This document shows, one piece after another, positions 10,800-59,391 of a stretch of 64,000 nucleotides of DNA. Each line of letters begins with the position of its first letter. The stretch's first letter is position 1. The notes beneath the pieces are model-generated. The model did no database searches, was not told the DNA's origin, and was given only the letters and a program-made list of their open reading frames with translations. The position numbers and the translations under genes are program-made. Source of the DNA: a virus; the IMG/VR virus record IMGVR_UViG_3300021168_000001, positions 1 to 64,000 of that record; one strand, written 5' to 3'.

Positions 10800-11449
10800 A
10801 GCACAAATGGAAAGGCCAGCAATTAGGCGGCAGCCCGGTCGAAGAAACCTCGACGGAGTGGATCTGCTACTGCGATAACTGCGGAACCGAAAGGAACGAC
10901 GACAACAAAGACGAGGTGTGCATCCCGGTTAGCTGGTCTGATTTCAGGCGCGCGGTTCAACTCCAGGATCCTGCACAAGTACAGCGCGCCGCCACTCTTC
11001 TCAGATCAAACAAGACCATGTTCCTTCATGCATACCGCGAAGAACCGATTGTTTATAGATCGATTCAGGTAGCTCTCGATAATGGCCTGCGCGAAGAGGA
11101 TGCGTGGCTTCTGGCTGTGATCGGGTTGCTAGAAGAAAATCGAAAACTGTTTCAAAACGCGCAAACTCTAACAATGTTGGCGCCTCCGCCAATCTACGCA
11201 CCAGAGCGACGTCCTATTCAATGGAACGAAGAGGCGGCATCCATCCCGTTGCTTACGGAAGAGCACTATTTAACCGATGATGCTATCCTTCCGTCCCTTA
11301 CTCTGCCCAATCCATGCGAGATCCGTATAGCGATCACAGCTAGCCATGTGAGCCTGGCCATCGGACAGCGCGACTTTAGTTGGAAGCGCGGCTGCCCCGA
11401 TCTCTCAGGCGCAGGAACATTTCTCGATTCTGCGGAGCCAGATAGATGA
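10796..11449 (+). CDS. hypothetical protein
   Basis: ATGA overlaps; N-terminal CDNC. Confidence 0.55.
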   Translation: MKHKWKGQQLGGSPVEETSTEWICYCDNCGTERNDDNKDEVCIPVSWSDFRRAVQLQDPAQVQRAATLLRSNKTMFLHAYREEPIVYRSIQVALDNGLREEDAWLLAVIGLLEENRKLFQNAQTLTMLAPPPIYAPERRPIQWNEEAASIPLLTEEHYLTDDAILPSLTLPNPCEIRIAITASHVSLAIGQRDFSWKRGCPDLSGAGTFLDSAEPDR

Positions 11450-13770
11450 GCTGCGACGTTATCATCGGTGACGCTATCGAGAAGCTGCGCACGCTGCCGC
11501 CCGAGTCCGTTCACTGCGTCGTTACGTCTCCTCCCTATTTTGGTTTGAGGGACTACGACATAGACGGACAGATCGGACTCGAGCCGACTATCGCGGAATA
11601 CCTTCGCAAACTGGTCGACGTGTTCCGCGAGATCCGCCGTGTGCTGCGCAGCGACGGAGTCCTTTTTGTTAACATGGGCGATACTTACAACGGTCAGAAC
11701 GAACGGGCCCCAAGCGTCCTGCCAAACGGCCAGTACAGCTTCCGGTCAGGAAGCGGACCCAAGGTACGCGTGGCCGGCCTAAAAGCCAAGGACCTCATCG
11801 GCATGCCCTGGCGCCTCGCGCTAGCCTTGCAGGACGATGGCTGGTACCTCCGCCAAGACATCATATGGTGTCTTTCAGGAGGGACATACGTCTACGCTCG
11901 CACGCAAAATGGCGATATGCCCATAATGGTCCGTGATCTAGCTCGGCTCAAGCCGAGCACGGTCCAGCTGTGGAACGGCCAGAAGTGGACTCGCTTACTC
12001 GGAACTTCCAAGTCGAAGCGTCGCGGTACGGAGTTGGAAATAGTCCTCCGTTCAGGCGAACGCATCTCCTGCACTCCGACTCACAGATTCCCGACTACGC
12101 GCGGGCTTTTGGAGGCACAAGAAATCCGAGCAGGCGACTGTCTAACCTCGTGTCGACTGCCACAACCCAATAATCCCAAAACCAGTGTGATCGATGAGGA
12201 TGCTGCATGGCTTGCAGGTCTCTACGTGGCCGAGGGTTCAATGTCCGGAGACACGATCCAGATAGCAGGACACGCTAGGGAGATTTCGCGGTGGATACGT
12301 CTCGGCTCGATCGCGGCTAAATATGGCGGCGCATGCACTCATTCGATCAAGGGCAACACAATGAACATTCGCCTCTACGGTAAAGTCTTGGTTGCCATCA
12401 TTCGGGAGTTAGTCACCGGGCGCACGGCGCGGGACAAGGGCTTTGCTCCTGTCGTATGGAGGCACTCCGATTCTTTTGTCAGTTCGATGTTGAATGGATA
12501 TTTGTCGGGCGATGGTGCCTATAGCGAAGAGAGGTGGCGTCTCGGATTCACGAGGAATTACAACCTGGAACGGGATCTCCGCACTGCCTGCGCTCGACTC
12601 GGCTACACCATCACTCTCAATCCATCCTCAGTCCTCTACAAAGGGAAGAAGCGTCCCACGTTCAGAGGAGAAATTCGATTCGAGCGAAGCGGCCATCACA
12701 ACGAAAAGGATCGCAACGAAGTAATCGAAGTTCGGAAGGCGCGGTGTCGAGAAGTCTACGACCTCGAGGTAGAGGATGAACCGCATGTCTTCGCGCTCGC
12801 GTCTGGCGTGCTCACTCATAACTCAAAGAAAAATCCGATGCCTGAGAGCGTTCGCGACCGCTGCACCAAGTCCCACGAATATATCTTTCTGCTCTCAAAG
12901 TCGGAGGAGTACTTCTTCGACATCGAAGCCATTAAAGAGAAGGCTAGCGGCACGGCTCACACGCGCGGCGGCGGCGTGAACCCAAAGGCCACCAAACATG
13001 GCCAGAACTCACGCATGCGCGTCGACCGCGATCCGCGGCACGCAAAGAAAGACACCGGAGTTGGCTGGGGCCGACTTTCGAAGCTGGATCCAGATAACAA
13101 TCAGAGAGACCGCAATCGCATCATCGGCCGAAGCAGCAAACAAAACCCATCATTTTCTGCTGCCGTGAATGAGCTCGTTACACACCGCAATAAGCGGAGC
13201 GTCTGGACCTTCGCCACATCGCCCTATCGAGAGGCACATTACTCGACCTTTCCTGTCACTCTTCCCGACATCTGCATTCGCGCCGGCACTAGCGAACATG
13301 GGTGCTGCGCTGTCTGCGGACGGCCGTTCGCGCGGCTCATCGAGGCATTCGACACCGGCTTAACTCAGAAGACTGCCAACGGCTGGGATATCGAGGAAAG
13401 ATCGCACGGATCGTCCCATCGCGATGGAAGAGACGGAAGAACAACAGAACGTCCGATCATTGCAACTCGCACTATCGGATGGGAATCGGACTGCTGCCCT
13501 CTCTTCGGTGGAACTGTGATCCCTTGCGTCGTCCTCGATCCTTTTGGCGGATCAGGAACCACTGGCCTGGCCGCCACGAAGCTGGGACGCAACTGCATTC
13601 TCATCGACTTAGACCCTAAGAACATTCCTTTGATCGAGAAACGACTTCGCTCTGCCGTCCCTGGAACACCCAAGCCTCGCCAGAGGAAGCTTGGCGCAAA
13701 AGAGCCAGTCGACTCTACATCATTGGTAACCAAATGCGGTGACCGTGGACACACCGTCGCGCGGATTTGA
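11446..13770 (+). CDS. DNA amino-methyltransferase (N4C/N6A, beta class) containing an intein
   Basis: VTSPPY near the N-terminus, NMGD, KDLIGMPWRLA, HEYIF, HYSTFP, VLDPFGGSGTT near the C-terminus. Confidence 0.92.
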   Translation: MSCDVIIGDAIEKLRTLPPESVHCVVTSPPYFGLRDYDIDGQIGLEPTIAEYLRKLVDVFREIRRVLRSDGVLFVNMGDTYNGQNERAPSVLPNGQYSFRSGSGPKVRVAGLKAKDLIGMPWRLALALQDDGWYLRQDIIWCLSGGTYVYARTQNGDMPIMVRDLARLKPSTVQLWNGQKWTRLLGTSKSKRRGTELEIVLRSGERISCTPTHRFPTTRGLLEAQEIRAGDCLTSCRLPQPNNPKTSVIDEDAAWLAGLYVAEGSMSGDTIQIAGHAREISRWIRLGSIAAKYGGACTHSIKGNTMNIRLYGKVLVAIIRELVTGRTARDKGFAPVVWRHSDSFVSSMLNGYLSGDGAYSEERWRLGFTRNYNLERDLRTACARLGYTITLNPSSVLYKGKKRPTFRGEIRFERSGHHNEKDRNEVIEVRKARCREVYDLEVEDEPHVFALASGVLTHNSKKNPMPESVRDRCTKSHEYIFLLSKSEEYFFDIEAIKEKASGTAHTRGGGVNPKATKHGQNSRMRVDRDPRHAKKDTGVGWGRLSKLDPDNNQRDRNRIIGRSSKQNPSFSAAVNELVTHRNKRSVWTFATSPYREAHYSTFPVTLPDICIRAGTSEHGCCAVCGRPFARLIEAFDTGLTQKTANGWDIEERSHGSSHRDGRDGRTTERPIIATRTIGWESDCCPLFGGTVIPCVVLDPFGGSGTTGLAATKLGRNCILIDLDPKNIPLIEKRLRSAVPGTPKPRQRKLGAKEPVDSTSLVTKCGDRGHTVARI
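11869..12822 (+). mobile_element. intein with LAGLIDADG homing endonuclease (318 aa)
   Basis: Starts CLSGGT, block B CTPTHRF, WLAGLYVAEGS and LNGYLSGDG, VYDLEV, ends LTHN followed by Ser; excision restores DIIW-SKKNPMPESVRDR. Confidence 0.92.
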
Positions 13771-38109: not shown

Positions 38110-39177
38110 TCAAATACCATCCGCGTATATCATCGTTTGGTTGCGCTTGAAGATCACCTGTGAGATGCAACCAACGAAGCCGGTCTGGTAGGCGCCGCCA
38201 GCCTGCATCGTCGGGACTGTGATGGATGTCTTCTTCGGCTGCGGAATCTTGAGGTAGAGCGACTTCTTCGAATTCTTGTAGAAGACCGCGCGATCAAGAC
38301 CGCCCGCGCCCGTTCCAGAAATCCACGGGTTGGGAAGGGAGTTGATTTTGAAGTTGATGCCGTTCTTGGCCGCCACACACTCACGCTCGATGTACGCGAT
38401 TGTCGAGAGCGCCACGGCCGATCCACCGATCGCCATCGGTTCGCTGAGAGTGGCGAACTGGCTATACGGAAGCAGGAGAGAATCCGGCATCGCCTCGGTG
38501 ATGTCATATCCGGAGTTCTGTACGACCTGGTTGAGCGCATTGTTGACGTCAAACAGGATCTCGGTCGGCGATTTCTTCACCCATGTGGTCGATCCGCCAG
38601 CGCCAGCTGGCACCACGAATTCAACGACGTTCGGGTTGTTGATGAGTCCCGGGTCGCCGAGGAATCCCTTATAGGTGACATAATCGAGAGCCTTCACCCA
38701 GTTGATGTCGACAGACTCCTCATACATCTCCTGAAGGGAGATAGGAGGAGGCATGCCGCTACGCTTTGCCGTCGCCAGTCGCTCGAGGTCGATGTAGGTG
38801 ATGGTCATGGCCATCGCCCACGGGTAGGTCTTCCAGAGCGACTTCTGGATATCAGCCTGCGCCTCGGGGATATCCGTGTTGTTGGTTCCCTGCAACCCAA
38901 AGAACTGGGTTCCAGTGGTACCGTAGTTGGTTGCGAAAGCTGCGAGATACTGCGGGAACCCTCCGCCTACATCCACGGAAATATCCCGAGCATGAGTCGT
39001 TGCCTGGAGAGGCCGGACAACGTCAGTATCGATGAGTTCCAATTGGCTTTGAAGGAACGCAAATCCAGATGCGCCGGCCGCGTCGAACGCCCTGCCACGC
39101 CCTCTTGGAGTTCCATCGAAGCCACGAGCGCGTCTAATCAATTCCCGATCGCGCTGACGAGAAGCGAATGTATTCAT
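38110..39177 (-). CDS. major capsid protein (DUF2184-like, HK97 fold)
   Basis: AFL..QLE.ID, DI....GGG, GL.NNP.V, W..K...EI..D.N, P..LLLP, Y.DGI. Confidence 0.92.
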   Translation of the reverse strand: MNTFASRQRDRELIRRARGFDGTPRGRGRAFDAAGASGFAFLQSQLELIDTDVVRPLQATTHARDISVDVGGGFPQYLAAFATNYGTTGTQFFGLQGTNNTDIPEAQADIQKSLWKTYPWAMAMTITYIDLERLATAKRSGMPPPISLQEMYEESVDINWVKALDYVTYKGFLGDPGLINNPNVVEFVVPAGAGGSTTWVKKSPTEILFDVNNALNQVVQNSGYDITEAMPDSLLLPYSQFATLSEPMAIGGSAVALSTIAYIERECVAAKNGINFKINSLPNPWISGTGAGGLDRAVFYKNSKKSLYLKIPQPKKTSITVPTMQAGGAYQTGFVGCISQVIFKRNQTMIYADGI

Positions 39178-41733: not shown

Positions 41734-42528
41734 TTACCGAGTATCTCTTTCCCGTGGATCACGTTTCACGCCCATCTTGACTGCGCACGTTTCGCAGACT
41801 CGGCCCTGAGGGGTCGATATCATCCGCGAGGTTTCCTTTCCGCATCGTGCGCATTCGCTTTTCGCGTCGCCAGCCTTGCGCCCACGCACCGCATCGATAC
41901 AGCGATCGAGCGTGGCATGCAGGCGAGCGCGGATCGCGGCACGTCCGGTCTTTGATTGCGCTGGGTCGTACATCTCGGCTGGCGCGTCCTTGCTACGCAC
42001 GTCATCGTATGGCTGTAGCGGACGCGAGCGATGCTCAGAATGCTCGAAACCGCCTTCGCCTTCGAAGTCGTCCTTCATTCGCCGTTTGCGGTCCATCACC
42101 CGATCGAGCGCAGAGTGCATCCGTGCGCGGTGGTCCATGCAGTCGTTCGCCCTCACCATCTCATAGCTCCCTTCACCGCTCGGACTGCCGCGCGTGATCA
42201 CATCGTCTTCTTCGAATTCGGGGAGATTCTCTTCTACTTCAAATCGATCCGCACCATCGCCATCGATCGAGAATCCGCAGGTTGTCGAATGCCCCACTCC
42301 AGCACACCACTGCACCAAAGCGAGGAACCTTTCGAAGCGCTCGAGCACCTCGGCTGGCGCCGTGATTGTATAGGTCCGCGTTTCACCGGGATCCGCATCG
42401 GCGGTCATGCCTCTCGCATTCGCGGTCGCATAAAATACGGATTTCGCCTTTTTGGGGTCGGAGTAGGTTTTGCGCATTGCTCGCATCACCTTGTTGCCCT
42501 CGCCTTTGAAGTACGCTCCTATTGGCAT
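41734..42528 (-). CDS. modular hypothetical protein, candidate internal head cargo
   Basis: Start MPIGAYF; two copies of R.R[ML]H..LDR..D; A-x-D motifs; C-terminal CARC..CETC. Confidence 0.7.
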   Translation of the reverse strand: MPIGAYFKGEGNKVMRAMRKTYSDPKKAKSVFYATANARGMTADADPGETRTYTITAPAEVLERFERFLALVQWCAGVGHSTTCGFSIDGDGADRFEVEENLPEFEEDDVITRGSPSGEGSYEMVRANDCMDHRARMHSALDRVMDRKRRMKDDFEGEGGFEHSEHRSRPLQPYDDVRSKDAPAEMYDPAQSKTGRAAIRARLHATLDRCIDAVRGRKAGDAKSECARCGKETSRMISTPQGRVCETCAVKMGVKRDPRERDTR

Positions 42529-42533
42529 CGCAA

Positions 42534-42836
42534 TTAGTTCCCTGTGCAAATATTCAGGATTGCCTTCTTGCCGATTGAAATGGCCGCAATGTAAGTAGCG
42601 GCCCCAAGCACCAGGTATTGCGTGTCGCCGGCATTCACCATGAGGCTCGTGTTATTTACCGCAACCACAGTGACATCGCCCAACTGGACGGCGGCCGGGT
42701 CCGGACCAATATTCACCACGCGCACGACGGTATCGCCGCCGAGCGTTCCAGGCAATGCGACTCTGGATGATGTGGAACCGGCGCCCATCCCGATACAGGC
42801 GTCTGGGGCGAATGCAGATTGCGGCGTGGCTGGCAT
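42534..42836 (-). CDS. small beta-rich protein (possible virion decoration)
   Basis: VRVVN.G......LG; 100 aa in the head module. Confidence 0.6.
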   Translation of the reverse strand: MPATPQSAFAPDACIGMGAGSTSSRVALPGTLGGDTVVRVVNIGPDPAAVQLGDVTVVAVNNTSLMVNAGDTQYLVLGAATYIAAISIGKKAILNICTGN

Positions 42837-43271
42837 CTACTCAAGTCCTTTCCGGAAGTTCACGATCCACGGTGCACCTAGCAGCTCCATGTGCGCCTTC
42901 ATTGATACTTCGTTGTGTCCATGCACAGCTGCCGAAATGTGCTTCAGGCCGCGTGCCCGACATTCCTGTTCAAGCCGCTCGATCAATTTCCCATATAGAC
43001 CGCGGCGCCGGTGGCGGAGGTCGGTCCATGCAAGGCCGATGAATGCACCATCACACCACTCCTGCCAAATGATCATCGATATCGGCTCACCATCCTCATT
43101 GCGCATGAGGATCAGCGAATTGTCTTTTACGGGAAGATAGGAACCTCCGACATTTCCCATTTCGATCTTCAGGTCATGCGCTATGCCGTGGGCGATGCTG
43201 ACACAGAATTCGAGGATGTTGGTATCCTCGATCGTTCCCATTACTTCGATCGTTTCGGTCACCGCGCGCAT
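42837..43271 (-). CDS. GNAT-family acetyltransferase
   Basis: HRRRGLYGKL acetyl-CoA motif, V...N..S. Confidence 0.75.
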   Translation of the reverse strand: MRAVTETIEVMGTIEDTNILEFCVSIAHGIAHDLKIEMGNVGGSYLPVKDNSLILMRNEDGEPISMIIWQEWCDGAFIGLAWTDLRHRRRGLYGKLIERLEQECRARGLKHISAAVHGHNEVSMKAHMELLGAPWIVNFRKGLE

Positions 43272-43630
43272 AGGATTCCGAAGCAATCGACGCGCACCAG
43301 GCCGCGTCCGGTTCCATCCTGCGGGTGCGGATCCCAGGCCATCTGTCCGTTCAATCCGACTACCGCATGCAAGTGCCCGCGTGGGCTCTTGCCCTCGATC
43401 GTGTGATACACGGGCCCATTCTTGAATGCCTGTTTCAACCCAGGCGAATCGATGTCAACCTGAATGTAATAGAGGTTGAATTGCTTTAAAAAATCCTGAG
43501 TTTGACTTAGAAACAAATCGTCGGTAGCGAATTCAGGGACATCGGCTTCTTTTATTTCGAGGATCGATGCCAGACATGCCTGAAAACAGCGGCCATTTTT
43601 CCCGGTGCGGCTTTGCGTCTGTGGGATCAC
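43259..43630 (-). CDS. small papain/C39-like protein
   Basis: Q......G.CF.ACLASIL, G.SPRG..HAVV......WDP (Cys-His-Asp). Confidence 0.55.
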   Translation of the reverse strand: MIPQTQSRTGKNGRCFQACLASILEIKEADVPEFATDDLFLSQTQDFLKQFNLYYIQVDIDSPGLKQAFKNGPVYHTIEGKSPRGHLHAVVGLNGQMAWDPHPQDGTGRGLVRVDCFGILCAR

Positions 43631-46600
43631 GCTTTCACCGCTCCGGCTGGTCTGTTGAGGTTTGCCGTCGCGAGCCAGTACTTGAAGTCATCGATTTGCA
43701 TCGGCGAGATGTCCATCATCACTTCATCGGCACGGTGATGAGCTTTAGGATAGGCTCGTTTCACCTCGCCAAGCGTATCGAATCCCAGGAACACCTTGTG
43801 CTCATCGAATCCCTTAGAAGTATGCAGATGGCGCTGGTCAACGATATAAACCCAATCGCTCTCAGGGTCCGGCCCGATGTAACAATCGAGCGAATCACCA
43901 TCGGCTCCGGTGAACCCTTCGATATATCCATAGTGTGCCGGCATCCGGACCGACCATCCTTTGCCCGATCGAATATGGCCCTTGGGTGTCTCGACCACAC
44001 ACGTAAGACCATGAATGTTGAACTCCATCACGCCCGGGTCATCGGCGTCGGCGGCGCGCCCTGGCTCGTCCATTTCAAGCGGATCGAAGCCAAGCATGTC
44101 GATCACCGACCGCGGCGTGCGCTCGAGCTCTGCATCATCATCGACGTCGTCGAAGTCGCCTTCGTATTGGCGCCAGTCGTCATCGGTCCGCTGCGCCGAT
44201 CCATAGTGCACTTCGGGCAATTCCACACCAAATGCCTTATCGAAGGCCTCTTTGAAGAAATTGAGTTTGGTATCTCCGGCCCTCGCCGGCTCGGCGCTGC
44301 CCTCGCTCGCAGATTTCCATCCCGAGAAGATCTGCGGAGGAATATAGGACTGCAACGCGACGATTGGTGTGTTGCCGAGTTTCTCGGAAACAGCCTTCGC
44401 AACCTCCATTACCGCTTTCTTGTACTCCTTCGGATTGGTCGGGGCTTTCACTTTCTCGACAAGGCCGTTCGCGGTCTCGGCCGCCAGCGCGGTGCGAAAG
44501 TCCTTTGTCTTGAAGCCGCCGTGATCGAGGTTGTCCTTCGTGAAGTCGCGCAGGCTCGCATCGCTCACGGACGGAAAGAGATTGCCTTTCTCACCGGCCT
44601 TGGCACGCAGCTCTTTCAGCATCGATCCAAGCTGTGCGTCCTCGACCGGCAACGATATAGTCACGCCCTTCTTCCCAACGAAGCGCAGTCGCACGCTGTT
44701 GCCAAGCTGCCATACATGATGCCCCTGCAAGGTCGACGCACCATAGGCCTTTACCGCGCCTCCCGTGTCCGAATCGCTGCCGGGCCGGATCCCAGTCTTG
44801 CGCACCAGGTACATGCAGTCGGCATGATCCCGTACCTTGGCGTCCTTACTCTTGCGGAAGCCGTCCAGCTGCTTGTCGATCAGGCTCATGTTCTTTTGCA
44901 GTGCCTGGACGCGCTGGAACTTCAGGTCCGCCTGGCTGTTCTTGAACGTAGGCGAGTAGACATATTGCTTGCGACCTTTCGAATCGAGACCGGTTGCCAA
45001 CAGGTCGGCCTTTGGCATCGGCGAGATTCGAACATCCTTCCACGCTGGCGGGATCTTCAGCGACTTGGCATGCTCCGGCCAGTCCTCGCGACTGGAGTAG
45101 GACTGAAGGTGCGCGGTCTTTGTCGATTCCTCGCCCCCCGAACCGCCAGTGCTTTCTTTATCGGGATCGCTGGACCCTTCGCCACCACCGGGCTCCTCAC
45201 GCGGTCCCATGCCCTTCCGCCGACGCTCCCAGGCCTTCTTTGAAGCTTTTGAATCATCGGTCGCCCTAGCCACCGCAGATAGCGCTCGCTTCTCGGCGCG
45301 CTGCGGCCCGAACAGCTTCTGCATCGTCGCAAGGCGCTTGTCGTCCTGCTCCCCTTCAGGATCGCCGCCCGGCTCTTTGCCGCTCTCGCCCTTGCTCCCT
45401 TGTCCCTCTTCTTCTCCACCCTCGCCTGTAAGCGATTCAAGACCACCCTCGCCGCCGCCCTGCTCGCCCATGCTCATGACGTCATCGGACAGAGCCGCGA
45501 TCCGCTCATCGGTAAGATTCGTTCCGAAGCCAGTTGCGTCGGAGGCCTGCTTCACCTCTTCGGCGCCAGCCCGCGGCGACATGATGCCGAGGTTGATGGC
45601 GACCGCCACCGTATCAAGAGTGGCCTTGGCAAGCTCCGACTTTTCCTTTTCATCCAATACGCGGACGGATGGGAAGTTGAGGTCCAGATCGTCGGGGATC
45701 TCACCGAGCTCCGACATGCAAAGCACCGGGTACAGTTTCTCGAGCTGTGGCCGCAGTTCAACGTCCTGGTCGGTGGCGATCTTCTCCTCGTAGATTCGCT
45801 CATCGGCATCGTTCGATTGCCCAAGTCCGCTGATCGTGCGCCCCCAAAGACGCGTGACCGGGATTTGTGTCGCACCTGAGATGTCCAACTGAAACTGCTG
45901 ATAAACATCGCTGAGGCCGGTGAAGGTATAGTTCACGGCCTCGATCCCGCCATCGGCCGGAAGCGGCACCAGGCTCTGGTTTGACAGCAAGTGGTTCAGG
46001 GTTGTCATGCGCTGCTGAAACTGTATCGCGGCTTGCTGGTTCATGCCGACGCCAGAAAGAACCTTTGCCAGTTCCGGAAACTTCATACCAAGAATGCAGG
46101 CGCGGAACGTGAGCGATAGTATGTTCCAACTCATGTTGTCGCGCTTGCGAATCTCTTCATAGGCCGGCTCGATCACCGATATGCCCCAGTAAGTCTGCGC
46201 CTCATACTCCGGCGTCGGCACCTCTGGCCCGCTGAAGCGCAGTATTCGCGACGAGTGCACTAGAAAACTCTCGGCATCCGGCGCAGTGACCCGGTACATC
46301 TCCGGCTTGTTGAAGTCGGTCGGCCGATTGATGTCCGTGCAGATATCGCCGTGCGGCTGAATGCCTGTCCAGCGATCGAACGGGATCAGGCCTTTGTAAT
46401 CGCCGACGCCGATCGTGTCAGGATCCAGCGGCTCCTCGAGATTATCCTCTTGACCATCGATCACCATGAGTGCGCCGCCGCCCCCGAAAAGCCTCGCCCA
46501 CTTCAGCGCACGGAGAAGCGTCGATTTGGTCTGCGTGCGGCGAATCTTGCGATCGATCTTTGTCAGATCTTCGGGAGGGATATCGCTCGTCAGCTTCGGC

Positions 46601-46893
46601 CAGGCCCTCACCATATCCTGCGCTGGCGTATCAACGATGCGCCGAGAAATCCAGTGGTTCCGATAGAGAGTTATCAGGAGCCAGTAGTTGAAGCTCAGCC
46701 TATCGAGTTCATACGTCGCTGCCTCGGCAAGATTTGGTGTGCCGTATCCCATGCGAGCCGGCACATTTGAAAAATAGTCGAATGCCTGCGCATCGAATCC
46801 TTGTCCGAAACCCATCCTCTGGAGCTGCGCCTGCCGCTCCATATCCGGATTGGTCCCAGCCCTGATCCTACGGCGCTGCTGCAATTCAGGCAT
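43627..46893 (-). CDS. portal protein (DUF1073-like) fused to type IB topoisomerase and InPase-like domains
   Basis: Portal: LYR..W..RRIVD.PA.DM, WARL.GG, H.SR, WG.S, IP.TRL.G...G. TopIB: IPPAW, GRKQY.Y, GIRPG, FVGKKG, KDFRT, LGNT....SYI. InPase: ETPKG..R, YGYI....GADGD..D, FDEHKV.LGF. Confidence 0.9.
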   Translation of the reverse strand: MPELQQRRRIRAGTNPDMERQAQLQRMGFGQGFDAQAFDYFSNVPARMGYGTPNLAEAATYELDRLSFNYWLLITLYRNHWISRRIVDTPAQDMVRAWPKLTSDIPPEDLTKIDRKIRRTQTKSTLLRALKWARLFGGGGALMVIDGQEDNLEEPLDPDTIGVGDYKGLIPFDRWTGIQPHGDICTDINRPTDFNKPEMYRVTAPDAESFLVHSSRILRFSGPEVPTPEYEAQTYWGISVIEPAYEEIRKRDNMSWNILSLTFRACILGMKFPELAKVLSGVGMNQQAAIQFQQRMTTLNHLLSNQSLVPLPADGGIEAVNYTFTGLSDVYQQFQLDISGATQIPVTRLWGRTISGLGQSNDADERIYEEKIATDQDVELRPQLEKLYPVLCMSELGEIPDDLDLNFPSVRVLDEKEKSELAKATLDTVAVAINLGIMSPRAGAEEVKQASDATGFGTNLTDERIAALSDDVMSMGEQGGGEGGLESLTGEGGEEEGQGSKGESGKEPGGDPEGEQDDKRLATMQKLFGPQRAEKRALSAVARATDDSKASKKAWERRRKGMGPREEPGGGEGSSDPDKESTGGSGGEESTKTAHLQSYSSREDWPEHAKSLKIPPAWKDVRISPMPKADLLATGLDSKGRKQYVYSPTFKNSQADLKFQRVQALQKNMSLIDKQLDGFRKSKDAKVRDHADCMYLVRKTGIRPGSDSDTGGAVKAYGASTLQGHHVWQLGNSVRLRFVGKKGVTISLPVEDAQLGSMLKELRAKAGEKGNLFPSVSDASLRDFTKDNLDHGGFKTKDFRTALAAETANGLVEKVKAPTNPKEYKKAVMEVAKAVSEKLGNTPIVALQSYIPPQIFSGWKSASEGSAEPARAGDTKLNFFKEAFDKAFGVELPEVHYGSAQRTDDDWRQYEGDFDDVDDDAELERTPRSVIDMLGFDPLEMDEPGRAADADDPGVMEFNIHGLTCVVETPKGHIRSGKGWSVRMPAHYGYIEGFTGADGDSLDCYIGPDPESDWVYIVDQRHLHTSKGFDEHKVFLGFDTLGEVKRAYPKAHHRADEVMMDISPMQIDDFKYWLATANLNRPAGAVKA

Positions 46894-46909
46894 TTATGCT
46901 CGACTCCGT

Positions 46910-47152
46910 TCATTCAGGCTTGTCCAGCCAGATCACTTTGCTTTCGTCGTAAGGCAGCGCTTGAATTCGTTTTCCATTTCGAATGAAAGCCCAGAGTACA
47001 CGGCTGTCTGGATTCACAATGGCCAAAAGAACTGCGAGATCGATCTCGAATCCGTTGACTTTCATCACACATCGATCCTGATCGACGAGGACCTTCGTGA
47101 GTTTTCGCACGGCGATCACCGCCTTTGTATTTACCCCAAAAAGAAGGGCGCG
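46910..47152 (-). CDS. hypothetical protein
   Basis: MRALLFG...WLD; fits the gap. Confidence 0.55.
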   Translation of the reverse strand, partial: RALLFGVNTKAVIAVRKLTKVLVDQDRCVMKVNGFEIDLAVLLAIVNPDSRVLWAFIRNGKRIQALPYDESKVIWLDKPE

Positions 47153-47200
47153 CATTGGGTACGCGCCCTGGCCTAAGTGATGCAACTCCTCTTTGGGAGC

Positions 47201-48001
47201 TTACTGTTGAACAAAAGTTAGAACGCCGTTGATGCCGCCTGTTCCGGTCGACAGCACGCAGAGTGCATTTCCAGCTGGAGTCGCGAACCTGCTTCCCTCG
47301 CCGCTCAGTCCCAGCACTGCGCCCGTCGCCGGTGCGAATGCGCCTGTCAATACCGTTGTCCCTGTCCCGCAGGTGGTGCCAGTTCCATATTCGAATTGGG
47401 CGGTCGTTGTAGCACCAACGCTGGCAGTAAATCCGCAGGCATAGACTACTTTGCCGGCGCTCAGTGCCACTAGCTGTGTGGTCGTAGCCGTGCTGATCGC
47501 GACTGACACACTGGACTTTGTTACCGATGGATTCTCGCATGGATCACCAATATTGGCCAGAATCATTGACGCCGATGGACTGAACGTTATGTTCAACAAT
47601 CCGGCAGTCGGGTAGGTGCTCGAGCAAGCATAGGTGGCCACATACTGATCGCCCGTGCTGACCCCGGGAAACACCTGAAAGCTCTGTACACCGGTCGACG
47701 GCGTAAAGCTCACGGTCGCTACAGTTGATCCTGCCGTATTCACATTGTTTGACTGATAAGCTAGCGTGACGGTGCAGCCGCTCGGCGATCCGGTGATTCC
47801 AGATTCAACAATCGTCAGCGTGCCCACGCCAGAAAAGTTCGGCAACCGCGATGCAGGGCTGGTCTGCGTGGCCGTGGCGGATACTGCCGTAAACAGGCTC
47901 ACCCCGGACTGAGATGTATAGGTGGTCTGGGCGATTGACGGAATGACAGCTGCCGCAAGCAGAGCCAGGATCGAAGTAATAACCGAAAACTTGAGTTTCA
48001 T
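47201..48001 (-). CDS. signal-peptide-bearing Ser/Thr/Cys-rich beta protein
   Basis: MKLKFSVITSILALLAAAVIPSIA-Q; six Cys. Confidence 0.75.
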   Translation of the reverse strand: MKLKFSVITSILALLAAAVIPSIAQTTYTSQSGVSLFTAVSATATQTSPASRLPNFSGVGTLTIVESGITGSPSGCTVTLAYQSNNVNTAGSTVATVSFTPSTGVQSFQVFPGVSTGDQYVATYACSSTYPTAGLLNITFSPSASMILANIGDPCENPSVTKSSVSVAISTATTTQLVALSAGKVVYACGFTASVGATTTAQFEYGTGTTCGTGTTVLTGAFAPATGAVLGLSGEGSRFATPAGNALCVLSTGTGGINGVLTFVQQ

Positions 48002-48031: not shown

Positions 48032-48679
48032 TTAGGTTGTGGTTCGTACTGCATCGATTACTCGATCGAGCGCGATGTGCATCCGTTGCCGATAAACGGA
48101 ATCGCTATCCGTAGCCTTGGCCGCGGCACGCTTCGCACGCATCGTCTCCCAGGCTTTCTTGGCCGCCGCGCTGCGTCCACCACCGCTTCCAGCTGCTGGC
48201 TTCTCCGCAGTCTTCGGCCGTTCGCTGCTTGAAGACGATGGCTGCTTTCGAGCTTCGCGCTTCTGTTGTTGCTCCTGCTCCCGTTTTCCGGCCCGCTGCC
48301 GAGACCGTTCGTGCGCTTGGCGCATAAAGTCTTCCCACGCGGATCGCGCAGCCGGTCGCGGCGAATGCTGGGATCCTTGCTGCTGATGCTGGCCGCGTTG
48401 CCGTGCAGCATTCGGGCCTAGCGTTTCGTAATTGTGAGACCCGGCCTGGTAGGAAGGCTCGTACTGATGGACCTTCTCGAGAAAGGCATTGGCCTCGGCA
48501 GTGTTACCAACCTTGCGGCTCGACGTCTCCATCGCCTTGAGTTTATTCAAGATCTCGGGAGATACATCTTTGCCGATCGCGTCCATCGCGCGAAAGATCT
48601 TCTGGATGTCGTTGGCACGGCGCACATTAGGTCTGCGTTCGTACAAATGTTCCATCCTTGTCTTCGCTCGGTCGCTCAT
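48032..48679 (-). CDS. candidate internal head cargo (DUF2786-like helical hairpin, KKAWE motif)
   Basis: ILNKLKAM....GNTAEA.AF; AAKKAWETMR; C-terminal RQRMHIALDRVID. Confidence 0.65.
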   Translation of the reverse strand: MSDRAKTRMEHLYERRPNVRRANDIQKIFRAMDAIGKDVSPEILNKLKAMETSSRKVGNTAEANAFLEKVHQYEPSYQAGSHNYETLGPNAARQRGQHQQQGSQHSPRPAARSAWEDFMRQAHERSRQRAGKREQEQQQKREARKQPSSSSSERPKTAEKPAAGSGGGRSAAAKKAWETMRAKRAAAKATDSDSVYRQRMHIALDRVIDAVRTTT

Positions 48680-49047
48680 TGCGGCCTTGTCACGGCTGGC
48701 GCGTCAGCTGGATATTGTGCGTTCTCAAGCCTCTGCACTTTCGGAATTACATAGGAGTCCTGAGTCTGCGATACCTGCTGCAATTGAGACCGCATCGAGA
48801 GCACCTGTTCAACAAGATCACGCTGCCTCTGCGAGTCGTTCATTACCGATGCACGCACGGCCAACTCGAGGCGCCCCAGACGCTGGTCGATCTCTTCATC
48901 ATGCCTCTCGTGCTCGAGAATCTGCCTGAGCGCCTGTGTCTGCCGGTCATCGGCATATTTATTTATCTTCGCCAGACCGCCAAAGATCGATCCGACAATC
49001 GTTAGAGCCGTGGCCACCGTCGCGAGAGTGATGTGTTTCGGCGTCAT
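48676..49047 (-). CDS. N-anchored membrane coiled-coil protein
   Basis: AAGGAG RBS, ATGA overlap with the MuF stop, one TM then coiled coil. Confidence 0.65.
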   Translation of the reverse strand: MTPKHITLATVATALTIVGSIFGGLAKINKYADDRQTQALRQILEHERHDEEIDQRLGRLELAVRASVMNDSQRQRDLVEQVLSMRSQLQQVSQTQDSYVIPKVQRLENAQYPADAPAVTRPQ

Positions 49048-49892
49048 GCCGCTGTGCGCTCCTTCATCCCGCTCAGGTTCCTGAAAGCGATTCGAGTCAT
49101 GCTCATGATCCGGCCGTTCCGATGAACGCGGTGTGGCCATTTCACATCATCGAGTGTGAGCAGCGGAGATTGAGGACAACGACAATTTGGAAAAGTTCCT
49201 CCGTGCCCACGTCCCAATGTGCTTTTCTCTCCAATTAAAGCCTCTGGCGATGGCGGGTCATCATAGAACACGATCACACCTTCCATATTTTTATGACTCG
49301 GCCTCACCCTCGTATCTTCCGACGTCAACCATTCGTAGCACGGTAGCCCGAGATGCTCGGCGCGCGCCTGCGTGAGAGCCGCGCTTGCCTTCATCGTTTC
49401 GGTCCGCGCGATCAGATTAATCCTGGTTCGCGTGAGTTGCGGAAACCGGTGTCGCATCATCTTGGCGATCGCTTCCGGCCGGGCCCCTGCCTGCTGCGCC
49501 TCCGCGATCTCGCCCGTCAACTGCTGAGCGACCTTTCGCGGAATACTCGAGATATAGGCCGCATTCTCATCAACTATCCTGCGAAGTGCAATCCCGACCG
49601 GCCCGGCCATTTCCCGCTGCAGGAGCCGATGTAACATTGAGCTCCGTTGCGCCCGCGTCGCCGCTTCACGCCAGGTTCTCGCGTTCAGCACGTTGACCCA
49701 CCGGCCCATCTCGCCGGCGACATAGGCTGCGGCATCAGCAACGTCTCGCCGCTCGCTCACCGCCGCCAGTTCTGCAATCCACTGCTCGAAGCTTACATCC
49801 GGCTTGCGTTGGGGGATGCTCGACAACATGAGTCTGCGGATCAGCCGCTGATACTCGAGTTCGATCCGTCGCGTAACCGTAAAGTCACTCAT
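49044..49892 (-). CDS. MuF/SPP1 gp7-like head morphogenesis protein (short form)
   Basis: N...I.SIP, LIARTE..KA, Y.W.TS.D.RVR.SH, PNCRC. Confidence 0.92.
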   Translation of the reverse strand: MSDFTVTRRIELEYQRLIRRLMLSSIPQRKPDVSFEQWIAELAAVSERRDVADAAAYVAGEMGRWVNVLNARTWREAATRAQRSSMLHRLLQREMAGPVGIALRRIVDENAAYISSIPRKVAQQLTGEIAEAQQAGARPEAIAKMMRHRFPQLTRTRINLIARTETMKASAALTQARAEHLGLPCYEWLTSEDTRVRPSHKNMEGVIVFYDDPPSPEALIGEKSTLGRGHGGTFPNCRCPQSPLLTLDDVKWPHRVHRNGRIMSMTRIAFRNLSGMKERTAA

Positions 49893-58056: not shown

Positions 58057-59391
58057 TCACGCCGCCAAGAGTCGATAATCCGAAAACACTTCTTCAACCC
58101 CGTACCGCAGCGCATCGCACCCATGGTCGTTCGTTTTTATCGGTGCCTCTTCGCCGCGCTTAATCGCGTCCGGATCCCACATATACGACGGCAGTTCGCG
58201 AATCAGCTCTTCGCATTCGGCACTGATCCGAATCCGTCTTTGAGTAAGCACGCTCGAGGTCTTGCGGATCCCATCGAGCACATCGTTGTTGGCATCCACT
58301 ACCCAGAGATTTGCAGCTGACAACTCATTGCGAAAGCTGGCGGCCGAAGGATCGAGAACGATGCGCGGCTGGCTGCGCCGTTGCACGCGCGATACACTCA
58401 CAATGCCGGCTGTGTTCTTGTAGCCGTCTGGACTAAGCCAGCAAACGATGTCGTCTTTGTACTGCGAGTCTGTCTTTTGACGCATCTCCTTCGCGGAGTC
58501 CCACCAATACTGACGATCGATCCAAAGCGTCTTGCCGTCGTCAATTGCCTCGAGCGCCGTGCACGGGTTGGCCGTGCCATAGTCCATGAAGACGATGTGG
58601 TCGACATAACCGCCAAATCCATAGAGCCCTGGCCCGATCTCTTCAGGGTGGTAAATCAGATCGGATGACCAGGCACTGCCATAGATTGCGCCTTCGGCTG
58701 CGACCCATCGGCCGAGAATGTAACGCAGAAAGAAGACGCCGCTTTGCGAAGCTTTGATCGTTCGCTTTGAATTCGGGTCCAGGTTCGGATTGTCGTCCAG
58801 CGTGAACTCGATGTGCGTTAGGTCCGGCTTGAAGCTTTTGCCATCGATGACTTCGGTCTTCAGGTAGTGCGTCGGCGGGCCCGGGTTTGTGGTTCCGTAG
58901 AACCGCGATCCTTTTGGCGAAAGCCGCTGCATCAGAACAAAGAAGAAGGACCGCGGCCACTCGATCACCTCATCCCCGATCGCAACACCAATCGTCATTC
59001 CCAGAATGTTCGTGTATGACGCCTCATCGTTGGCGCCAATCACGAACCATTGAACTCCGGCGCCGTTCTCACCCAGAAACAGCCAGAGCTCACCGGTTGA
59101 CTGATTGTAGGAGTACTTGTCTTTACCGATGATTTCGAACAGGTCGATGAGAATGTTCTTGTGAACCTTGCCCTTCGACTTGCCGATAATGACGCGCCGG
59201 CCCTCCACCTTGTATCGGCAGAGGTGAAGAATCACCTTCGCTGTAACGGCCCAGGTCTTGGCGGACCGGACGGACCCGACAAGAATGTTGTACTTTCTGT
59301 CGAGCTCGGGCGGGTGCATGATGAACGCGTGCGCCTTGCGTCCGAACTGTTTAACTTTTTGTACAGGAGCAATCGACGTCCCGGTTGCCAA
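58057..59391 (-). CDS. terL: terminase large subunit (PBSX-like)
   Basis: GSVRSAKT, AIGDE, GTTNPG.P.HYLK, F...DNP.L, G.WV.AEG..Y, DYG..NP, DPSAASF, DH..DALRY. Confidence 0.95.
   Translation of the reverse strand: MATGTSIAPVQKVKQFGRKAHAFIMHPPELDRKYNILVGSVRSAKTWAVTAKVILHLCRYKVEGRRVIIGKSKGKVHKNILIDLFEIIGKDKYSYNQSTGELWLFLGENGAGVQWFVIGANDEASYTNILGMTIGVAIGDEVIEWPRSFFFVLMQRLSPKGSRFYGTTNPGPPTHYLKTEVIDGKSFKPDLTHIEFTLDDNPNLDPNSKRTIKASQSGVFFLRYILGRWVAAEGAIYGSAWSSDLIYHPEEIGPGLYGFGGYVDHIVFMDYGTANPCTALEAIDDGKTLWIDRQYWWDSAKEMRQKTDSQYKDDIVCWLSPDGYKNTAGIVSVSRVQRRSQPRIVLDPSAASFRNELSAANLWVVDANNDVLDGIRKTSSVLTQRRIRISAECEELIRELPSYMWDPDAIKRGEEAPIKTNDHGCDALRYGVEEVFSDYRLLAA

Follow-up and report, generated by a model that had tools for sequence, protein, structure and literature searches.

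The sequence analysed here, referred to hereafter as the window, is the first 64 kb (64,000 nucleotides) of a 103,269-bp IMG/VR virus record (IMGVR_UViG_3300021168_000001) that CheckV rates as 100% complete. Within the head module of this uncultured, contractile-tailed soil phage lies a single open reading frame (ORF) of 1088 residues in which a phage portal protein is followed, in one frame, by a glycine- and glutamate-rich linker, a type IB topoisomerase (TopIB), a small acidic module and a pyrophosphatase-like InPase domain (Table 1). An initial annotation, made from the sequence without database searches, had described the single ORF with its portal, Gly/Glu linker, TopIB and InPase domain, had listed the TopIB catalytic set as retained and had placed the motifs ARATD, ARAGD and GRAAD between the parts. 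All of these assignments were borne out: the parts share one frame with four Pfam matches, Pfam recognised every domain that had been named, and the three motifs lie where they had been placed. What that annotation missed is the acidic module and the make-up of the ORF, which unites in one frame two genes that relatives keep apart.

Domains of the portal ORF

The portal part was identified by Phage_portal_3 (PF06381), which matched residues 73-430 over profile positions 3-356 of 357 (E 2.6e-93, 313 bits), and by the NCBIfam model TIGR01555, with a score of 202.6 bits against a cut-off of 196.25. Sequence matches in the PDB were to the portals of Pam3, E217 and Pa193. This is the sole portal gene of the complete genome (one match to PF06381, zero to PF04860 or PF05133), and every portal subunit is therefore translated as a 1088-residue precursor. 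Portal C-termini point to the capsid interior.

The sequence that follows the portal is rich in Gly (21%) and Glu (15%) over residues 471-600 and contains a basic tag, SKASKKAWERRRKG. In 75 of 117 TopIB homologues a different tag, with the pattern [FW]xExxHPRx(2-14)GxF, lies 26-76 residues upstream of TopIB. Neither tag has a Pfam family. The basic tag is of a KAW type (A-A-K-K-A-W-E-T-R-R) that was seen in three places: in the portal after the first R-A-x-D motif, in orf215 of the head module, and at the extreme C-terminus of an AAA+ clamp-loader-like protein (genome 79906-80775, plus strand).

In the TopIB domain, Topoisom_I (PF01028) matched residues 649-845 (E 2.5e-19, 70 bits; cut-off, 23.7) and Top1B_N_bact (PF21338) matched residues 610-637 (36.6 bits; cut-off, 27). 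As aligned by HMMER with TopIB of Deinococcus radiodurans (PDB 2f4q, E 2e-20), residues R703, K741, R800, N841 and Y850 correspond to R137, K174, R239, N280 and Y289, and this catalytic pentad was invariant in all 30 aligned homologues. The AlphaFold2 model of residues 592-866 had a predicted local distance difference test score (pLDDT) above 90, and its best Foldseek matches were the bacterial and variola enzymes 2f4q, 3m4a, 3igc and 2h7g (E 2e-12 to 6e-11). Judged by these residues and by the modelled two-domain C-clamp fold, the TopIB is predicted to be catalytically intact. Cleavage sites of the poxvirus type, CCCTT, are neither depleted nor enriched in the genome (135 observed, 121 expected).

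The InPase profile matched residues 957-1074 (E 3.8e-33, 114.6 bits; cut-off, 26.8). All of the residues that are at least 90% conserved in 27 InPase sequences are present, namely the metal-binding acidic residues E968, D998, D1000, D1003 and E1031 together with R975, Y988 and K1033. The AlphaFold2 model of this domain also had a pLDDT above 90. The top 50 Foldseek matches to this OB-fold model were all family I pyrophosphatases, but they were weak (best E 1.5e-3, template modelling (TM) scores 0.3-0.46).

As in polyvalent proteins and portal-fused effectors, at least two effector domains are thus carried on one virion protein encoded among the head genes. No built-in processing peptidase (MPTase or similar) was found among the profile matches of the ORF; the candidate processing enzymes, a DUF2213 protease and a C39-like protein, are encoded apart from it.

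Table 1. Features of the 1088-residue ORF and of the surrounding head module, in window coordinates. P0002-P0005 are the four closest portal-TopIB proteins; MCP, major capsid protein.
Feature	Residues	Coordinates	Strand	Basis or remark
Whole ORF: portal, linker, TopIB, acidic module, InPase	1-1088	43627..46893	-	Single open frame, no stop
Portal domain proper, Phage_portal_3 / TIGR01555	1-470	45484..46893	-	Pfam, PDB and NCBIfam matches
Gly/Glu-rich acidic linker	471-541	45271..45483	-	Composition; no Pfam domain
ARATD, candidate cut site 1, before TopIB unit	542-546	45256..45270	-	Motif kept in P0002-P0005
Basic tag SKASKKAWERRRKG	548-561	45211..45252	-	Occupies place of [FW]xExxHPR...GxF in most homologues
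TopIB domain	600-866	44296..45096	-	Pfam, 2f4q alignment, AlphaFold2, Foldseek
ARAGD, candidate cut site 2, in bridge joining two genes of relatives	870-874	44272..44286	-	pLDDT <50
Acidic module	875-949 (core 891-943)	44047..44271	-	Matches small ORFs directly downstream of TopIB genes
GRAAD, candidate cut site 3, before InPase	945-949	44047..44061	-	Asp949 invariant; predicted disordered
InPase (PF18823) pyrophosphatase-like domain	950-1088	43630..44046	-	Pfam, conserved residues, AlphaFold2, Foldseek
Terminase large subunit (TerL)		58057..59391	-	PHROG 2, E 4e-34; heads same-strand head module
MuF-like head morphogenesis protein		49044..49892	-	Pfam PF04233, PHROG 324
orf215		48032..48679	-	Two R-A-x-D; KAW-type basic tag
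C39-like papain-fold peptidase candidate, 123 residues		43259..43630	-	Atlas structural matches, TM 0.65-0.69, to Peptidase_C39 clusters
GNAT acetyltransferase		42837..43286	-	Two genes past InPase-bearing portal
orf271		41734..42549	-	One R-A-x-D
DUF2213 prohead protease fused to scaffold, 569 residues		40024..41733	-	PF09979, E 3.8e-39; PHROG head maturation protease; eight R-A-x-D
MCP		38110..39177	-	PF09950; G-R-A-F-D at residues 28-32

The acidic module and the recurrence of TopIB fusions

Between TopIB and InPase, residues 875-949 form a module of their own. Its core has the pattern LPxVHFG..DWR..acidic run..TPxxVIxMLGFDP, close to the consensus of a family (LPDVHFG..DWR..acidic run..TPxDV..LGFDP) whose net charge averages about -0.17 per residue. 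A HMMER search of 1.84 billion representatives matched 158 clusters with a median length of 71.5 residues; among the matches listed, 116 of 150 clusters were no longer than 110 residues. No family for the module was found in Pfam or PHROGs and no usable match in the ESM atlas. A profile search of the PDB gave nothing significant, the best match being colicin S4 (E 0.05).

The members of this family are closely associated with TopIB. In 45 of 52 IMG/VR loci seeded on the acidic module, a TopIB domain on the same strand ends -60 to +90 nucleotides upstream, and in 44 of these 45 the module is a separate ORF, mostly with an ATG overlapping the TopIB stop and with GGAGG upstream. L009 is an example of a standalone homologue paired with its own TopIB. 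In the reverse test, all nine TopIB-seeded loci from GTDB metagenome-assembled genomes carried the acidic module immediately downstream, and a profile search found it downstream in all TopIB loci of the first IMG/VR scan. One carrier locus (L086), in a metagenome-assembled genome of Castellaniella, resembles a prophage. This gene linkage suggests that the acidic module may bind TopIB. Residues 932-941 had a pLDDT of about 82 when modelled with TopIB and about 55 when modelled without it, a difference that is not evidence of docking. The module has other hosts as well: it forms the N-terminal part of larger proteins in which InPase is combined with an ADP-ribosyltransferase, a NUDIX domain, a HipA-like kinase or a DUF2213 protease.

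The portal-TopIB architecture proved to be recurrent. In a collection of 5.8 billion proteins, 319 proteins of 598-1904 residues matched the TopIB part; among the best 120 of these, PF06381 and PF01028 occurred together in 64, and 16 of the 64 carried PF18823 as well. Portal-TopIB ORFs of 1154, 1016 and 901 residues were present in three complete or near-complete IMG/VR genomes (70.6, 109 and 72.7 kb, respectively). TopIB was also found fused to three other portal families (PF06074, PF04860 and PF05136) and to MuF, DUF2213 protease, NUDIX and ADP-ribosyltransferase domains, and it also occurs as a separate gene. A tblastn search of 50,697 GenBank phage records gave one distant match, a standalone gene of 254 residues in a Bacteroides phage. 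The family is common in soil and other metagenomes and nearly absent from cultured phages, which explains why it has been overlooked. The initial annotation knew of no characterised portal-TopIB fusion, and our literature searches likewise found no paper on one, common though such fusions are in metagenomes. One partial portal-TopIB homologue (P0015) is named 'anti-CBASS Acb1 family protein' in an NCBI record; this looks like a carry-over of annotation onto PF06381 portals, since NCBIfam gives the present ORF only TIGR01555 (HI1409 family).

Comparison with relatives bears on how the ORF arose. In loci L029 and L030, whose proteins P0002 and P0005 have TopIB domains 67-69% identical to the present one, a portal-TopIB gene is followed by an overlapping, out-of-frame acid-InPase gene. 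By this comparison, the present ORF corresponds to a portal-TopIB gene and an acid-InPase gene joined in frame by about 30 new residues that include ARAGD. Other in-frame fusions of TopIB with the acidic module occur in L075, P0140 and P0235. A fully split set was seen in L028:4370-7880, where InPase, portal, TopIB and the small acidic gene are four adjacent ORFs.

The nearest relatives of the portal part (L002-L008 and L010, 58-65% identity) consist of a portal, other small linker modules and InPase, without TopIB. In the complete 100,317-bp genome behind L002 (G005; 63% portal and 68% MCP identity), TopIB was absent anywhere, and most portals of the Phage_portal_3 family also lack it. Because the closest complete relative does without it, TopIB is dispensable for packaging. 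On this distribution, TopIB with the acidic module is a mobile accessory cassette and does not belong to the packaging machine, and the portal tail as a whole is an array of cassettes. In L002-L008 (for example, L002:941-3517) a different conserved module of about 60 residues (..NGKLLTVRKVTTGT.DLFGEPTVQV.F.TGE.VAY..) lies between portal and InPase; it has A-P-A-M-D before it and R-A-E-D after it, followed by variable modules that each end in x-A-T-D.

R-A-x-D motifs and the head module

The tetrapeptide pattern R-A-x-D occurs 21 times in the predicted proteome (144 ORFs, 31,469 residues). Fifteen of these occurrences are in five head proteins with a combined length of 2,498 residues, compared to six in the other 28,971 residues, so that the motif is about 29-fold denser in the head proteins. 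The scaffold-protease has eight, the portal three, orf215 two, and orf271 and the MCP one each. When the five proteins were shuffled with their composition preserved, the mean was 1.55 and the maximum in 20,000 shuffles was 8. With the scaffold left out, seven motifs remained where 0.99 were expected, and the portal alone has three where 0.45 were expected (p ~0.01).

The positions of the motifs are also conserved. In the MCP, G-R-A-F-D (residues 28-32) lies directly before the conserved AAGASG that starts the fold, and relatives of this protein have R-G-F-D or R-A-F-D near the N-terminus, followed by A-[AS]-G. Four of the scaffold sites are conserved in position in L002 and L005, whose scaffolds are only 35-37% identical. 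At the junction homologous to the first portal site, P0002-P0005 all have [MV]-A-R-A-x-D-[DA] with differing flanks. In an alignment of acid-InPase and portal-InPase proteins, all 14 sequences had the Asp ahead of InPase, with Ala predominant at P3, and this Asp stands about 15-25 residues before the first InPase strand. All three portal sites are in stretches of low pLDDT that are presumably exposed. Sites cut by a maturation protease that takes Asp at P1 would be expected to look like this.

These results bear on two further claims of the initial annotation. It had taken the motifs to bracket two enzymes, and their positions agree with that, but residues 875-949 are a separate conserved module and not the mere boundary that such a description implies. 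It had also proposed that a maturation protease releases the enzymes. The enrichment of R-A-x-D, the conserved sites and the invariant Asp before InPase support release without proving it, and cleavage itself is a prediction from these patterns.

The head module lies on one strand and comprises, in order, TerL, the MuF-like protein, the portal, the C39-like protein, GNAT, the DUF2213 protease-scaffold, a decoration-like protein and the MCP. Tail sheath and baseplate genes indicate the contractile tail. The 123-residue C39-like protein has a Cys (in GRCFQAC) and a His (in HLHAVVG) that form a possible catalytic pair, and in relatives a C39-like domain is kept after the portal gene as the N-terminal domain of ORFs of 143-345 residues, some of them cut by contig ends. 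Neighbourhoods of InPase with GNAT and of InPase with NUDIX were noted by Iyer et al. 2017 (PMC5512222). Three head proteins share the helix motif R-x-R-[LM]-H-x-A-L-D-[RK]-x-[IM]-D: the scaffold has one copy, orf271 has two, and orf215 has it at its C-terminus. The motif may be a capsid-targeting or scaffold-interaction element.

Elsewhere in the genome, one ORF encodes a DpdA-like queuine tRNA-ribosyltransferase, and two or more large ORFs resemble DNA methyltransferases (genome 75696-76643, window 11446-13770 and genome 84148-86340, all on the plus strand); DNA modification by the phage may be heavy. Besides the TerL gene of the head module, an ORF of 645 residues (genome 100561-102498, plus strand) matches a terminase-large-subunit PHROG weakly (E 5e-10) over its first 240 residues. 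The record has a terminal repeat of exactly 127 bp (genome 1-127 and 103143-103269). It is probably a circular assembly; physical direct terminal repeats are not proven by a repeat of this length, since 127 bp is a typical k-mer overlap of assemblers. A megablast search of the 40-50 kb region against GenBank phages gave no match.

Proposed function and comparison with known systems

We consider it fairly probable that the modules behind the portal are capsid-loaded effectors, carried on the portal tail, released by a protease and probably ejected. Since each portal subunit is made as a 1088-residue precursor, up to 12 copies of each module would be built into the prohead at the portal vertex. 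The DUF2213 prohead protease would then most likely cut after D546, D874 and D949, because the R-A-x-D motifs that separate the modules recur in the scaffold-protease and at the MCP N-terminus. The products would be a mature portal (residues 1-546), a TopIB of about 328 residues, an acidic peptide of 75 residues and an InPase of 139 residues. The acidic module would bind TopIB and either hold it inactive or escort it during synthesis and packing beside the phage DNA. The freed enzymes would be ejected with the genome and act at the start of infection, when TopIB would relax supercoils in incoming DNA, host DNA or both, favouring early phage events, and InPase would hydrolyse pyrophosphate or a nucleotide-like signal. 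Ejection and early action are favoured by the company in which TopIB is found (MuF, ADP-ribosyltransferase, NUDIX and kinase domains) and by its dispensability for packaging. Space should be no obstacle, as the extra cargo (about 60 kDa x 12, or about 0.7 MDa) amounts to roughly 1% of the mass of the 103-kb DNA.

A more specific proposal, which we advance only tentatively, is that TopIB and its obligate acidic partner (about 55 residues) together form a DNA-topology effector not described before, which has two parts, is delivered by the virion and is widespread among uncultured phages. The partner would be a DNA-mimic inhibitor or a docking peptide that silences the enzyme beside the phage DNA up to the time of head maturation and ejection. 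Thereafter, TopIB would relax the DNA of the incoming genome or of the host, promoting early phage transcription or blunting defences that depend on supercoiling.

Several points weigh against these proposals. An Arg/Asp-rich repeat of the scaffold, with two RADD sites, contributes to the excess of R-A-x-D, one of the motifs is inside the protease domain and may not be cut, and our searches brought up no publication that documents the cleavage specificity of DUF2213 proteases. The KAW-type tag also terminates a replication-type AAA+ protein, so it is not specific to capsid cargo. Binding of the acidic module to TopIB is proposed from gene linkage. The module may instead be a general docking or leader element and not a regulator of TopIB, because it occurs in portal-acid fusions and N-terminal to other cargo; the portal-acid fusions were found in four fragmentary loci (records 10-25% complete), in which TopIB is not on the fragment. 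No InPase domain has so far had its substrate assayed (PMC5512222). The phage is uncultured, and we infer cleavage, packaging, binding of the acidic module, ejection and target from its sequence.

The enzymes might also do their work without leaving the portal. Twelve tethered copies of TopIB at the inner mouth of the channel could relieve the twist of packaging, with InPase in a local role, an arrangement to which the inward-facing portal C-termini, the independence of TopIB from ATP, a long flexible linker that would let the domains reach incoming DNA and a recurrent preference for portals (four families carry the fusion) are all suited. However, the complete close relative has the same portal, MCP and genome size and no TopIB, most portals of the family also lack it, and TopIB is found as well on MuF, protease-scaffold, NUDIX and ADP-ribosyltransferase proteins or as a separate gene. 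Conserved cut-site motifs bracket TopIB, and an obligate acidic partner is better explained as control of a dangerous enzyme than as an aid to packaging. Tethering therefore appears improbable to us. Relief of torsion during packaging, one of the roles suggested by the initial annotation, is not supported, given that the closest complete relative (100 kb) lacks TopIB and the TopIB fusions have the syntax of ejected effectors. A different route to release, by the downstream C39-like cysteine peptidase cutting in the Gly-rich linkers, would leave R-A-x-D as a scaffold-type interaction motif. The peptidase candidate has a predicted papain/C39-like fold and keeps its place beside the portal gene in relatives, several Gly-Gly pairs occur in the linkers, and polyvalent proteins often bring their own processing peptidase (PMC5512222). 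Nevertheless, we think this route very doubtful, given that an invariant Asp with a predominant Ala at P3 stands exactly at the domain borders and at the MCP N-terminus, as expected of a maturation protease, that the Gly-Gly positions are not conserved among relatives, and that C39-like domains of phages are commonly cell-wall peptidases too.

TopIB and the acidic protein could alternatively resemble a toxin and its immunity protein. Injected TopIB would relax or nick the host chromosome and shut off host expression, the acidic protein would serve as antidote for the producing cell and the phage DNA, and any help to phage DNA would be secondary or absent. MuF-borne and polymorphic toxins and their immunity genes show the same arrangement, in which a C-terminal enzyme is borne by a portal or MuF protein and a small gene coupled to it in translation comes next; TopIB also co-occurs with ADP-ribosyltransferase, HipA-like kinase and NUDIX modules, and the strongly acidic partner is like DNA mimics in its charge. 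In the present ORF, however, the acidic module is fused into the precursor and would be packed with TopIB, and in many proteins other cargo domains follow it, which fits a docking element equally well. We judge this explanation unlikely. Finally, the nearest TopIB-bearing relatives encode the parts of the ORF in overlapping genes that differ in frame, so that a single indel introduced by assembly or sequencing could mimic a fusion of the portal-TopIB and acid-InPase genes. A stop or misassembly between the domains, which the initial annotation had named as refuting the fusion, is not seen in an independent Logan contig of 25,651 nucleotides at a depth of about 12, which spans positions 43000-47500 (4.5 kb) with 0 differences. 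This contig is Logan's own assembly of a 2018 soil-metagenome run that is possibly the source sample itself. A second soil run (X2) yielded only four short identical contigs (share 0.13), one of which runs from the end of the portal domain into the linker, too little to serve as independent support for the whole fusion or for a habitat range. The bridge, moreover, is about 30 residues of new in-frame sequence with its own R-A-G-D and no simple frame slip, and in-frame fusions of TopIB with the acidic module occur naturally in L075, P0140 and P0235. We regard an artefact as extremely unlikely.

If the modules are indeed released and ejected as effectors, many uncultured phages bring their own tool for supercoiling, which would bear on early transcription, genome entry and the evasion of defences. 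Tailed phages are known to inject some proteins along with their DNA, but no report of a packaged topoisomerase was found. Among virion-borne TopIB enzymes, only that of poxviruses is well known. The regular pairing of TopIB with the acidic module suggests that type IB topoisomerases have a natural protein regulator, and the conserved Ala-x-Asp junctions offer a testable rule for the release of cargo by DUF2213-type proteases.

Portal-InPase fusions are among the nearest known counterparts. The fusion of portal and InPase in gp124 of Burkholderia phage BcepF1 was described in 2017 (Iyer et al., PMC5512222), and both BcepF1 gp124 and the portal gp19 of PB1-like Pseudomonas phages share the portal family and the C-terminal InPase with the present ORF. 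The Pa193 structure (PDB 9b41) and many PB1-like phages match both the portal and the InPase parts. In the Pa193 structure no density was seen for residues 529-765 of the portal, its C-terminal 237 residues, which include the InPase part (PMC11456595); by analogy, this fits flexible or detached cargo. The BcepF1 and Pa193 portals have neither TopIB nor the acidic module, whereas the present ORF has both of these between portal and InPase.

Polyvalent proteins and portal- or MuF-fused effectors (PMC5512222) share with the present ORF a layout in which one virion-associated protein of the head module bears several enzymatic domains, whose packing and injection have been proposed. The partner domains in common are InPase, NUDIX, ADP-ribosyltransferase and 2H. 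The domains described there do not include TopIB, and the present ORF differs in having no internal MPTase-type peptidase, so that release would need prohead-protease sites.

As to the enzyme itself, the best match in sequence and fold is to bacterial TopIB (D. radiodurans, 2f4q and 3m4a; Pseudomonas aeruginosa, PMC2666729), with which the present domain has in common a Top1B_N_bact domain and Asn at the His/Asn position of the pentad. The bacterial enzymes are standalone chromosomal proteins of about 300-350 residues that are not virion-associated, and no acidic partner for them was found in the PDB profile search. The phage-specific topoisomerase I of some jumbo phages (PaBG, Lu11, phiRSL1 and Motura; Iyer et al. 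2021, PMC7824862) has a TopIB-like fold, but it is a standalone protein of 540-560 residues, discussed as a replication and recombination gene, and is not fused to a portal. The present TopIB matched Motura and PaBG in BFVD and phrog_23460 weakly; the jumbo-phage enzymes are too divergent to be reached by tblastn at E 1e-5.

The closest functional analogy is the virion TopIB of poxviruses. The vaccinia and variola enzymes (3igc, 2h7g) have the same minimal fold and catalytic set as the present TopIB. In poxviruses the core of the virion contains this enzyme, which supports transcription early in infection. Poxvirus TopIB is a free protein of a eukaryotic virus, with no portal and no acidic partner, and is about 19-22% identical to the present domain. 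The internal proteins of phage T4 and Alt, an ADP-ribosyltransferase, are packed in the capsid; the prohead protease processes them at a short motif, and their ejection accompanies that of the DNA. In contrast to the present modules, they are targeted by an N-terminal capsid-targeting sequence and not by portal fusion, and the protease family and the cut motif differ. Our literature searches turned up no publication on a TopIB borne by a phage portal or virion, nor on the acidic module that accompanies it. Effectors fused to portal or MuF proteins are an established concept; what is new in the present ORF is the TopIB cargo, its partner module and the apparent grammar of the protease sites between them.

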